Source: a virus
Lineage: Duplodnaviria > Caudoviricetes
Strand: one strand, 5' to 3'
Length of the DNA stretch: 64,000 nucleotides
Virus record (IMG/VR): IMGVR_UViG_3300047469_000103
Span: 236,332-300,331 of that record
The position numbers and the translations under genes are program-made. Positions 44,928 to 47,904 of the stretch are shown here, one piece after another. Below the pieces are notes generated by a model. The model had not been told where the DNA came from and searched no databases. It was given only the letters and a program-made list of their open reading frames with translations. Every line of letters starts with the position of its first letter. Position 1 is the first letter of the stretch.

Positions 44928-44955
44928 GCAATTTGCTTTACTGGCAATGAAACCG

Positions 44956-44984
44956 AAAGCGGCCTAGAGATAGGTCGCTTTTTT
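44956..44984 (+). terminator. intrinsic terminator
   Basis: AAAGCGGCCTA-GAGA-TAGGTCGCTTT-TTT. Confidence 0.85.
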
Positions 44985-45014: not shown

Positions 45015-45821
45015 ATGATTAACGCTAGCGGAATCATCAAAGATATTCTGAACGGCAAGCTGACCTACACCGAATTGCTGCGCGATGTATCCACTATGCA
45101 GCAGTTGAGTTCTAACGTTGTCGATTTCAATTTCATCGTGAATCAATTTCTCGCGATGGGTTGCCGTTTGATTCTCGACGGTGACAACGTTCAAGTAGTT
45201 CCTAACGATGCACGAATTCATCCATCACCACCGGACTTTATGCGCATTCGTCCAAGCGAAGCGCTGCCGCTCATTCGTAACGAACCGTTCGCCTTCTTGC
45301 CGAATTGGGATAAAGTTTACGCCCGTTTAGAAATCATGCTTCAAAGCAAAGGGCCGCAGCCGATGACAACTGCGCCGTTTCGCGAAGTGTTGAGCATGAA
45401 ATCCATTTTCAACAATTCGAATCGCGTTGTTCCATCGCAAATGGTTTGCTTCCCGGTAATCTGTTTGCTTGATGGTTCGATTAAGCTGATTCGCATGTCG
45501 CTGCACAATTTCTCGAAAACCCCTCGCGATGTTTTGAATGGTGCGCCTTGCATCATTCGCGGTAAATCTTCACGGAAGCAAATCGTGAAGCCAACCATTT
45601 TGATCGAAAACACATTCGATACGGTTGAGATTCTGGAACGCAACGCTGAAGCATTGGCGCAACTGGAAGCGGACTATAGCGTTTCGAACGTTGTAACCGT
45701 TGAACAGGCACAACTGCTGCGTAACCTGCTTGATAGCCGGAAACGAGACGCTACGGCCATTCAAAGCCGTATGGCGTCGATTCATTCAGTAAACGAAGGC
45801 AAAGGCGCTAACCGGGCTTGA
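45015..45821 (+). CDS. hypothetical protein
   Basis: 268-aa ORF. Confidence 0.75.
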   Translation: MINASGIIKDILNGKLTYTELLRDVSTMQQLSSNVVDFNFIVNQFLAMGCRLILDGDNVQVVPNDARIHPSPPDFMRIRPSEALPLIRNEPFAFLPNWDKVYARLEIMLQSKGPQPMTTAPFREVLSMKSIFNNSNRVVPSQMVCFPVICLLDGSIKLIRMSLHNFSKTPRDVLNGAPCIIRGKSSRKQIVKPTILIENTFDTVEILERNAEALAQLEADYSVSNVVTVEQAQLLRNLLDSRKRDATAIQSRMASIHSVNEGKGANRA

Positions 45822-45860
45822 CTGCCCTATGGCCCTTTGATACCGTGGGTTGTCCGTAAC

Positions 45861-46079
45861 GTTTCGAGCCTTCAGCGTAACGCTCACGGATCAAGGGAAG
45901 TTTCAGACGATGCGCTTCTATATAGGGCGCACGCTTCGAACCTTGATTGATTGCAGCCGAAGCAATGAGCGTTACCGTTTCAATGCTTTCCGGCTCAAAG
46001 GAACGTTTGCCTTTATAGGGCGCCGTTCAAATGCCGCTTGTGTGTTTGGCGTTCCTTTGATAGATTGAAACCTCGAAAC
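45861..46079 (+). ncRNA. candidate structured ncRNA or leader, three-way junction with two similar arms
   Basis: At least 8 mutually compatible helices of 5-11 bp found by eye in an intergenic gap (see findings). Confidence 0.6.
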
Positions 46080-46134
46080 CCCTGCCTGAATGAAAAGGCA
46101 CTCACACATTAAAGTAAGTTTGGAGAGAATCACC

Positions 46135-47904
46135 ATGACTAACTACGTCGGCAAAACCATCAACGTAAACCACGGCGCTAAAAAAGGCGTCGTTAAAGAA
46201 ACCGTCGTTAAGCAATTGAAGAACGGCACCATTCGTACTGGCGACGGAACAGAATTCCACGCTGACGAAATCTACAACAAAGGCCGTGGCGTTTTTGTTG
46301 ACGTGAAAGGCGGCGCTACTAAAAAGCCTGCTGCCGTCGCTGCTGACAATTCCCGCAAAGCTCCAACTGCAAAACCTGCTGCTGCGCCAGCGCCTGCCGC
46401 TCGTGTTGCATCTGCTGTAACCGCCGAAGAACTGGAAGGCGCGAAAGTAAACGGTTCCCGTGTTGAACGCGTTCTGAAAAAGGCCGGGAAAGTAAAACTG
46501 GAAGACGGCACCACCGTTGAACTGTCGAGCATCGTTCGTAAAGGTCGCGGTTATGTTTCCGATTCGGCAGTAATGCCAGAAGAAACCAAACCAGCCGGTA
46601 AAACCGCTGGCGCAAAACCTTCTGCAAAAGGCGGCGCGGTTCCAAAAGTGAAAGCGGCAACTTTCGACAGCGCCACCTTTGGCCCTGCTGGCGAATACAC
46701 CACCAAAGACGTGCGCCATCAAATCGTCGATATCGACGGCGAAGAAAGCACCGTTGAAAAAGTATTCACTTCCGGTCGTTGCGTAACTGACGACGGTTCT
46801 GAATTCAACGTCTCCGAAGTGCGTACCCGTCTCGACGGCACCTTCTGCGTTTACTCGGAAGAGTACATTGTGGAATTGCAAGAATTGTGGGAAGCGACTC
46901 AAGCGCCGAAAGCCGCAGCGCCGAAAGCCACCGCTGAAATCACCACAAAAGAAGTGAAGAACAAAAATATCGCAGTGGGTGATGTTACTCACGTGATCGT
47001 AAAAACCTTTTCGAGCGGCAACGTTGAAACCGACCACGGTTTTAAATTCACCGTTAAAGATATCGCCCGCAAAGGTCGTGGCTATATCTACACCGGCGAA
47101 ATGCCAACCAAAAAAGGCGGCGCACTTCCTAAAGCTCGCCCTGCACCAGAACCGCAATCGAAAGTTCTGAGCGTTTCCGCTTTCGACGGCGACACTGCAA
47201 AAGACGTTCGCGATTTGTTGAACGTTGCAGTTCGTAACGCAATCGTCACTGCTTACGATATCGACGTAGCTGGCGTGTTCGTTGCGTATGACGAAAACAT
47301 GCTGACTTTCCAAGTTAGCTTCGCAGCAACCGACGCCGATTTGGACGTGGTTAAAGCTGCTGTAGAAAAACAGCGCCATGAAAATTTCGCTGATTCCGAA
47401 GCCCGCGATTTCGAGCAACACGAACTGACCGACGCGCCAGTCGTAGAGCAAGAAGAGGAAGAGGAAGAAGAGGAAGAGGAAGAAGAAGAGCGCGAAGAAG
47501 AGGAAGAGGAAGAAGAAGAGGAAGAGGAAGAGCCAGAATTCGCCGTGCTGCAAAACGACGACGATTTCGACGCAATGCCTACCAACGTTTCTTTCCCTGC
47601 TGACACTTCGAAAGACGTAGCCGGTGCCGATGGCCGTCTGAAACGTCTTTTCCCAACCAAAAGCCTCACCGGTTACGCTGAAGCGTGGTACGAATCGCAA
47701 GCGGCATTTGACGCGGTTGAATACGATATCGAACCGGGCAACACTTTGACTGTCGAAGGTCAGGAATATGTTTTGGTCGGCATTAAAGAACAGAAAATCG
47801 ACGGCGTACTGCAAGCCGCTCCTTTCCTCGTTCACGCAACCAAAATGCAATTCCGCCCTGACGTAACTTTCGACATGCTGAAAGAATGGGTTGCTGCGCA
47901 GTAA
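46135..47904 (+). CDS. multidomain protein: four beta-rich ~45-aa repeats, K/A/P linkers, poly-Glu tract
   Basis: Start MTNYVG after GGAGAG; repeats ending in (R/N)KGRG; E-run near 47450-47530. Confidence 0.8.
   Translation: MTNYVGKTINVNHGAKKGVVKETVVKQLKNGTIRTGDGTEFHADEIYNKGRGVFVDVKGGATKKPAAVAADNSRKAPTAKPAAAPAPAARVASAVTAEELEGAKVNGSRVERVLKKAGKVKLEDGTTVELSSIVRKGRGYVSDSAVMPEETKPAGKTAGAKPSAKGGAVPKVKAATFDSATFGPAGEYTTKDVRHQIVDIDGEESTVEKVFTSGRCVTDDGSEFNVSEVRTRLDGTFCVYSEEYIVELQELWEATQAPKAAAPKATAEITTKEVKNKNIAVGDVTHVIVKTFSSGNVETDHGFKFTVKDIARKGRGYIYTGEMPTKKGGALPKARPAPEPQSKVLSVSAFDGDTAKDVRDLLNVAVRNAIVTAYDIDVAGVFVAYDENMLTFQVSFAATDADLDVVKAAVEKQRHENFADSEARDFEQHELTDAPVVEQEEEEEEEEEEEEEREEEEEEEEEEEEEPEFAVLQNDDDFDAMPTNVSFPADTSKDVAGADGRLKRLFPTKSLTGYAEAWYESQAAFDAVEYDIEPGNTLTVEGQEYVLVGIKEQKIDGVLQAAPFLVHATKMQFRPDVTFDMLKEWVAAQ

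Follow-up and report, generated by a model that had tools for sequence, protein, structure and literature searches.

The intergenic spacer described here reads as two copies, in tandem, of a promoter-leader cassette that its phage group uses repeatedly, the first copy being gene-less. On balance, we favour the view that this first copy has become a folded 5' leader of about 220 nt for the gene downstream, most likely acting in cis. The spacer lies in a 64-kb stretch of a jumbo phage (the window, meaning the whole of the DNA analysed) between two plus-strand genes. It measures 313 nt (45822-46134), from a 268-aa ORF (45015-45821) to a 589-aa ORF (46135-47904), and not the 310 nt given in the initial annotation.

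The window also carries a replication module, with topoisomerase II subunits, a clamp loader, a PD-(D/E)XK nuclease and a 5'-3' exonuclease. Among named phages, the Pseudomonas phages HRDY3 (314 kb) and Lu11 (281 kb) come closest, and the source phage belongs to this Lu11/HRDY3 group of Pseudomonas phages of approximately 280-315 kb. The study of such jumbo phages at the transcript level is almost absent, and a literature search found no paper mentioning phage HRDY3. A phage gene for a sigma70-family factor is reported for the group (PMC7412058) and an RNA polymerase beta gene was looked for in HRDY3 and not found, which makes it plausible that these phages depend on the polymerase core of the host. 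The strongest site of the region resembling an intrinsic terminator (44955-44982, plus strand), a 12-bp stem followed by a T run, is located directly 5' of the 268-aa gene; because of this position, the 268-aa gene and the structured spacer may form a transcription unit apart from the upstream exonuclease genes.

Tandem promoter-leader cassettes

A homologous spacer is found at the same position of the gene order in 20 relatives, with six clades distinguished. The relatives come from HRDY3, IMG/VR contigs retrieved with a DNA pattern, one metagenome contig and Lu11; nine further homologous contigs were obtained through the downstream protein. Clade A comprises the window, L008 with L164, L120, L162 and L121; clade B, HRDY3 and L014; clade C, L005 and L012; clade D, L002, L003, L004 and L011; clade E, L122-L129; and Lu11 stands as the sixth. 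The alignment included 18 relatives, and Lu11 was compared by eye. A BLASTN search of a phage collection with the clade E spacer gave no match, and a loose DNA pattern, TTGATACC...CCGTAACG, was discarded, as it returned around 100 chance matches and its sole double match (L074) was an unrelated duplicated gene.

Between clades, the downstream protein retains only 37-49% identity, while the spacer contains blocks that hardly vary. Identity with the closest relative is 98.2% over the first 170 nt of the spacer, as compared with 88.2% and 81.9% for the flanking genes. Of the 15 differences from this relative, nine affect unpaired positions, although 65% of the positions are paired; four amount to two compensatory changes from C-G to T-A, one in the TATAG hairpin at 46009-21 and one in the P2 leader hairpin at 46083-46100, and two lie at a hairpin tip. 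The elements of the two cassettes are as follows.

45818-45846, plus strand: promoter P1, with the -35 hexamer TTGACT (45818-23), a 17-bp spacer, TG (45838-39) and the -10 hexamer TACCGT (45841-46)
45853-45861, plus strand: predicted P1 transcript start and conserved 5' block TCCGTAACG, 7 nt past the -10
45883-45903, plus strand: gene-less leader/RBS box CTCACGGATCAAGGGAAGTTT with the decoy Shine-Dalgarno-like AAGGGAAG, the best conserved block of the spacer
46038-46066, plus strand: promoter P2, with the -35 hexamer TTGTGT (46038-43), a 17-bp spacer, TG (46058-59) and the -10 hexamer TAGATT (46061-66)
46100-46137, plus strand: functional leader box ACTCACAC...AAGTAAGTTT, Shine-Dalgarno GGAG (46122-25) and the ATG (46135) of the 589-aa gene

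All 18 aligned relatives retain the pattern TTGAC-N15-TGnTAnnnT of P1, which can also be recognised by eye in Lu11. The length of the promoter spacer is fixed and its sequence is free, with only the positions relevant to sigma70 remaining constant, which is the signature of a predicted sigma70 extended -10 promoter. The TGn and -10 of the window read TGATACCGT; among the relatives, the -10 varies between TACCGT, TACCTT, TACATT and TAGCTT with the TG kept, apart from L162, where the TG is one base out of register. The transcript would start at about 45853, in the 5' block TCCGTAACG, which is conserved in clades A-D and replaced by CCGTGACG in clade E and Lu11. The stop codon of the 268-aa gene (TGA, 45819-21) sits within the -35 hexamer of P1, and in HRDY3 the stop of the upstream gene (TAA) lies 8 nt 5' of this hexamer.

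P2, with a predicted transcript start at about 46073, is embedded in the 3' strands of the second arm of the RNA fold described below. Its GCTTG and TAGNTT elements are conserved in clades A, B, C and E; clade E presents a perfect TTGACG-17-TAGATT with TG, and L121 has TTGCCA-17-TAGATT, while P2 is degenerate in clade D and Lu11. The P1/P2 pair stands out since sigma70-like matches are depleted between 44500 and 64000, where five were found against 15.5 +/- 4.1 in shuffles; the stricter pattern TTGAC-N14-16-TGnTAnnnT occurs once in the 64-kb window.

Both promoters appear to belong to a cassette with approximately ten copies per genome, which consists of a sigma70-type promoter, a short hairpin and a CTCAC...AAGGGAAGTTT leader/RBS box. 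The repeat was counted in HRDY3 and in the IMG/VR relative G001, where the box pattern CTCAC-N7-RGGAAGTT gives 10-12 matches per genome and a reversed-pattern control gives none. In most copies, the box is found 35-60 nt 3' of a TTGAC-17-TAnnnT promoter, is preceded by a short GGGC...GCCC hairpin and is followed by an ATG within a few bases. The TTTGATACCTT promoter type of P1 also fronts several other leader cassettes in HRDY3 and G001. P2, the hairpin at 46083-46100, the box, GGAG and the ATG of the 589-aa gene constitute a cassette of this kind. The gene-less box (45883-45902) follows P1 by 36 nt, which is within the spacing of the cassette, and is 76% identical to the real box at 46101-21. 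P1 with 45853-45903 and P2 with 46073-46134 would hence share the layout of the group's own cassette, with its transcribed spacer of around 35-60 nt. The upstream copy nevertheless differs from the usual cassette: it has no ORF, long-range helices take the place of the GGGC...GCCC hairpin, a unique TATATAG hairpin comes afterwards, and the two copies are fused into one folded unit. The initial annotation had been drawn without the cassette, and what it treated as parts of a single RNA element turn out to include a repeated leader/RBS box, which is the best conserved block (45883-45903), and, within arm 2, a second promoter.

The absence of a gene after the first box bears on a further explanation, that of a small protein or a regulatory upstream ORF, to which we give a very slim chance. 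The candidates are a 52-codon ATG ORF (45910-46068) within a 72-codon TTG frame (45850-46068) and the Lu11_0153A CDS. In the window, an ATG does lie 9 nt past the decoy Shine-Dalgarno, short ORFs follow the box in HRDY3, L004 and L122, and a 68-aa CDS is annotated in the same spacer of Lu11. However, a conserved ORF 3-7 nt past the AAGTT(T) of the first box was looked for and not found, an ATG or TTG being present there in some relatives only. The start codon is absent in L005, L012, L120, L121 and L125-127, the ORFs vary from 5 to 52 codons in differing frames, the closest relative has a frameshift caused by a 1-nt deletion, and Pfam and PHROG searches gave no match. The Lu11 CDS, for its part, overlaps P1 and the box. 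This CDS (Lu11_0153A, JQ768459; L165 2135-2341) extends across the promoter and the leader box with no counterpart in any relative, and is probably a mis-annotation.

Other copies of the cassette show features of their own. In L144 (HRDY3, PQ015379, approximately 282093), L154 (G001, approximately 141844), L146 and L159, no ATG follows the box. In copies of the L144/L154 type, AAGGGAAGT runs directly into its complement ACTTCCCTT and then into TTTTCT, forming a terminator-like hairpin from the Shine-Dalgarno-like box approximately 85 nt past a good TTGAC-17-TACTAT/TACAAT promoter; these copies are candidate short sRNA genes. Moreover, several cassette promoters have, 30-90 nt on their 5' side, palindromes that are perfect and GC-rich (TATACGCGTGCGCACGCGTATA), with a CGTATAGAGGGCGTGCC-like motif after them, as in L143 and L131 (HRDY3, approximately 276150-276215), with similar sites in L141, L151 and L153. 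They could be operator sites or upstream terminators, and the motif that follows them loosely resembles TATATAGGGCGC of the structured spacer.

Selection on the RNA structure

Inspection of the sequence located every helix listed in the initial annotation, and the fold can be described by the following elements.

45861-45868, plus strand: 5' strand of the closing helix H1, GTTTCGAG, pairing with 46072-46079
46072-46079, plus strand: 3' strand of H1, CTCGAAAC, containing the predicted P2 start at about 46073
45877-45886 / 45966-45975, plus strand: outer helix of arm 1, 10 bp
45890-96 / 45941-47, plus strand: inner helix of arm 1, with an additional ATTGC/GCAAT pairing
45908-45933, plus strand: TATATAG hairpin, with the stem CG-TGCGCTT / GGGCGCA-CG and the loop CTATATA
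45977-46071, plus strand: arm 2, with its outer helix at 45977-84 / 46064-71
45995-46005 / 46050-60, plus strand: inner helix of arm 2, 11 bp and perfect
46009-46021, plus strand: small TATAG hairpin of arm 2
46083-46100, plus strand: 5' hairpin of the P2 leader, TGCCT GAATGAAA AGGCA, at the hairpin place of the other cassettes

The unconstrained minimum-energy fold of 45861-46079 (RNAfold) is the nested two-arm structure. Its energy of -76.4 kcal/mol compares with -61.7 +/- 4.1 kcal/mol for 200 dinucleotide shuffles of the same stretch (z = -3.57), one of which folded equally well. The fold is diffuse, with an ensemble frequency of 0.0002 for the minimum-energy structure, and the outer helix of arm 1 is absent from the centroid. 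In line with the earlier statement that no Rfam family could be recognised, the 64-kb window contains no match at gathering score. When Rfam 15 was searched with 45780-46180 at E values up to 10, three weak matches were obtained, all on the opposite strand, and the best of the scores, 15.5 bits, is to be set against thresholds of 37-71 bits. Taken with the comparative evidence, these results support a real, selected RNA structure outside any Rfam family. It is assigned to the plus strand because the G-U pairs in several helices fit this strand only.

Folding excess and helices are unevenly distributed among the clades. The folding z-scores of the relatives range from about -2.7 to -5.0 in clade A and are -3.2 and -3.6 in clade E and -2.9 in clade B, with a small excess in clades C (-1.7) and D (-1.1). 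Compensatory changes were read across approximately ten truly distinct sequences, which are too few for a formal covariation statistic. The helices of clade A present at least 12 both-sided changes. In L120, L162 and L121, a G-C pair of H1 is changed to C-G and a T-A pair of the arm 2 outer helix to C-G, and the latter helix is longer in L121. The inner helix of arm 2 is kept at 8-13 bp within clade A; the window and L120 differ by five both-sided changes in it, and L120 and L121 by a further two. L121 has lost the TG of P2, but the inner pairing of arm 2 is restored there. H1 is also kept in clade E, where its duplex energy is better than that of almost all shuffles, and clades B-D have a weak equivalent of this pairing. 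The outer helix of arm 1 beats shuffles in clades A-D, mainly through sequence conservation, and is missing from clade E, and arm 2 is missing from clade D. In clade E, a 39-bp interrupted helix joins the 5' half to the whole P2 region, with five consistent or compensatory positions, including one change from U-A to C-G, and two breaks that each affect a single sequence.

The TATATAG hairpin is the local minimum-energy structure in 17 of the 18 aligned relatives, L121 folding otherwise, and can be drawn by eye in Lu11 as well. Its stems differ (GCCT/AGGC, TGCC/GGCA, TCT/AGA, GTGTTGCTT/AGGCAACGC, CATGCC/GGGTGTG) and its loop is conserved. These stems were compared from the folds of the individual sequences because indels put them out of register in a plain MAFFT alignment, on which RNAalifold found no pairs. 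The sequence TATATAGG was also considered as a general late-promoter motif and rejected: it has a single occurrence in the 314-kb HRDY3 genome, at this locus, and none in G001, where the copy reads CATATAGG. Clades A-D also share a putative 5' hairpin, TCCGT/ACGGA (45853-57/45886-90), which is longer in Lu11 and broken without compensation in clade E; it would cross H1.

The search for compensatory changes in homologues, by which the initial annotation had proposed to judge the structure, thus found them in H1, the outer and inner helices of arm 2, the TATATAG hairpin and the P2 leader hairpin. Most of the RNA structure, though not all of it, appears to be selected, most strongly in clades A and E. 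The universal core, as far as sequence comparison can define it, is P1, the 5' block, the decoy box, the hairpin and a closing interaction. The large branched fold would be an elaboration of clade A with a partial internal duplication; the absences of arms and helices and the small folding excess of clades C and D indicate that it is partly lineage-specific.

Much of the conservation of the spacer could serve DNA-level signals, given the location of P2 inside arm 2. It is conceivable, but decidedly unlikely, that the locus is a DNA-level control region only, with two promoters and operator or activator sites, whose helices are by-products of duplication. P1 and P2 both look real and are alike in clade E, TATAGAGGGCG-like motifs occur upstream of other HRDY3 cassette promoters, and clade D has little folding excess. 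In addition, the promoter element CCTTTGATA is complementary to the AAGGG of the box, so that repeated cassettes would create helices automatically. This reading is weakened by both-sided compensatory substitutions in at least six helices, as protein-bound DNA sites would retain their sequence and not covary. The stems that covary include some without a promoter role, namely the TATATAG hairpin, the P2 leader hairpin and arm 2 of L121, and G-U pairs are tolerated on the plus strand only.

The region is indeed internally duplicated, as had been noticed, but less can be built on the duplication than was suggested. The likeness between the arms is modest, with a 23-nt local alignment around TATAGGGCGC being matched by 19 of 2000 shuffles. 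This 10-mer is present twice (45921 and 46014) as described, and two or more occurrences of TATAGGGCGC in 64 kb are at chance level (49 of 100 shuffles). The idea of an RNA with two protein-binding sites fails: only the first copy, as the TATATAG hairpin, is conserved across all clades. The second is confined to the lineage of the window, reads TATAGACGCC in the closest relative and is absent in L120, L162 and L121.

The folded domain as a proposed 5' leader

What the locus shows directly comprises the helices, with the conservation and compensatory changes seen in them, as well as promoter-like elements, the repetition of the cassette and the lack of an ORF. From these we infer that host RNA polymerase, using the host sigma70, would start at P1 around 45853, giving rise to an RNA domain of approximately 220 nt that would fold autonomously into H1, arm 1, with the decoy box and the TATATAG hairpin, and arm 2. 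Transcription would then run on through the P2 cassette into the 589-aa gene, whose mRNA would exist in two forms: the long form would carry the folded leader, and the short form, made from P2, a standard leader. The gene of the upstream cassette would have been lost, or was never there. The domain would act in cis, as a stabilising 5' domain, as a platform for a protein or as both, with the decoy leader box and the TATATAG loop as candidate recognition sites, and the long isoform would thereby acquire its own regulation. Action in cis seems most likely because the fold leaves the real ribosome-binding site open.

The initial annotation had put the domain forward as a candidate ncRNA. For a free-standing ncRNA gene, the domain does have a promoter of its own, but no intrinsic terminator is found between 45853 and 46135, from the folded domain to the gene, and its location between the conserved P1 and this gene would make it the 5' part of a long mRNA isoform. 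A related possibility is that of a functional ncRNA, either released from the long transcript by cleavage close to the P2 start or still attached to it, which acts in trans. Such an RNA could be a decoy for a factor that binds the CTCAC/AAGGGAAGTTT box of the approximately ten early cassettes or, alternatively, an RNA partner of the downstream protein with its four SH3/Tudor-like repeats. The 3' limit of the folded domain coincides with the predicted P2 transcript start, H1 closing the fold exactly there, the predicted accessibility of the ribosome-binding site of the gene is unchanged by the fold, and an intact shared leader box is carried without an ORF. Furthermore, the box-derived terminator-like hairpins into which the cassettes L144 and L154 of HRDY3 and G001 run suggest that this phage group makes short RNAs, which is what makes a trans-acting or processed RNA a serious rival. 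Against it, neither a terminator nor a recognisable processing site was found after the domain, and in clade D and Lu11 read-through appears to be obligatory since P2 is degenerate there, which leaves the long isoform as the sole evident route to expression of the gene. The downstream protein, with its small beta-barrels and weak fold matches of Tudor, KOW and CarD type, would suit the second of these roles, but none of the matches is significant (best E 0.15). On this evidence, a trans-acting RNA is somewhat unlikely.

It is also unlikely, to a greater degree, that the gene-less cassette has become a dedicated regulatory RNA, whose folded domain of approximately 220 nt would use the decoy box and the TATATAG loop to titrate, or to recruit, a factor that acts on all of the approximately ten early cassettes. 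Candidates for this factor are a RegA-like translational repressor, a host RNA-binding protein or the multi-barrel acidic protein, and the sequence of P2 might be held as a duplex in the RNA.

In the predictions, the fold leaves the ribosome site of the gene accessible. The sequestration of the Shine-Dalgarno by the leader was considered and rejected, as the unpaired probability from the Shine-Dalgarno to the ATG is equal in P1 and P2 transcripts of 11 relatives; for the stretch 46100-46137, it is predicted to be 0.66 in both. A conserved pairing between the leader and the ribosome-binding site was looked for and none was found. The competing stem (45833-49/45883-97) that had been put forward as a switch does not hold either, because its 5' part coincides with the -10 region of P1 and precedes the predicted start at about 45853; only RNA reading through from the upstream gene could form the stem. 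A conserved two-state switch was rejected for clade A, both for this stem and for a fold in which the decoy box pairs with the 3' strand of arm 2, the latter being worse by 6 kcal/mol in the window and by 13-14 kcal/mol in L120, L162 and L121.

These results bear on a leader that senses a ligand or the temperature (a riboswitch or a thermometer) and on an antitermination RNA of the HK022 put type, possibilities that we regard as highly improbable. The multi-helix junction and the very conserved unpaired bases just past a promoter, together with the two arms of clade A, are features that such RNAs would have. Nonetheless, Rfam offers no match even at E values up to 10, the Shine-Dalgarno and the start codon have no conserved pairing and equal accessibility in the long and short transcripts, and the alternative fold is not conserved in clade A. 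There is, likewise, no terminator between the domain and the gene and no notable series of plus-strand terminators downstream, and other promoters of the P1 type lack this RNA.

The downstream protein and known RNA systems

The 589-aa protein (46135-47904) has four beta-barrel repeats of approximately 45 aa, which end in a shared RKGRGY motif and are separated by disordered linkers rich in K, A and P. The repeats are followed by an alpha/beta domain, a poly-Glu tract of approximately 35 residues and a C-terminal barrel. In the AlphaFold model, the pLDDT averages 69. The whole model gave nothing significant in Foldseek (best E 0.15), with weak resemblances to Tudor, KOW, EF-P and the N-terminal domain of CarD, and the protein has no Pfam or PHROG family.

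The locus provides a testable picture of the layout of early expression in phages of the Lu11/HRDY3 type where, at one conserved place, a gene-less cassette copy seems to have been turned into a folded leader RNA before the gene of a beta-barrel protein. It adds a covariation-supported RNA motif outside Rfam and corrects at least one probable mis-annotation, Lu11_0153A, and the promoter and leader elements might serve as parts in Pseudomonas. Should a regulator of the leader box common to the cassettes bind the domain, the locus would exemplify regulation through a duplicated decoy leader. If the reading as a dedicated RNA were true, it would represent a new class of phage RNA decoys built by duplication of an expression cassette.

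Several known RNAs can be compared with this leader. The put RNAs of HK022 are promoter-proximal, two-stem RNAs that modify RNA polymerase. The clade A domain is similarly a two-armed folded RNA directly past an early sigma70-type promoter; however, it is about three times larger, its arms are not conserved across clades, it has no homology to put, and terminators to be overcome were not found. RsmY and RsmZ are decoy or sponge RNAs. With these, and with sRNAs derived from 5'UTRs, the leader shares Shine-Dalgarno-like GGA boxes without an ORF and an independently folding domain. In contrast to RsmY and RsmZ, its GGA motifs are mostly within helices and not in hairpin loops, and neither a processing signal nor a terminator signal was found.

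The leader of the T4 gene 32 mRNA, a long structured phage 5' leader, is involved in translational autoregulation. No sequence or structural similarity connects it with the leader described here, which has no evident pseudoknot followed by an unstructured A/U-rich tract. The structured leader is a new RNA motif of a kind already familiar. As in the T4 gene 32 system, a long conserved leader precedes a gene in a replication-gene neighbourhood, and the encoded protein has an acidic tail and, in its predicted model, folds resembling those that bind nucleic acids.
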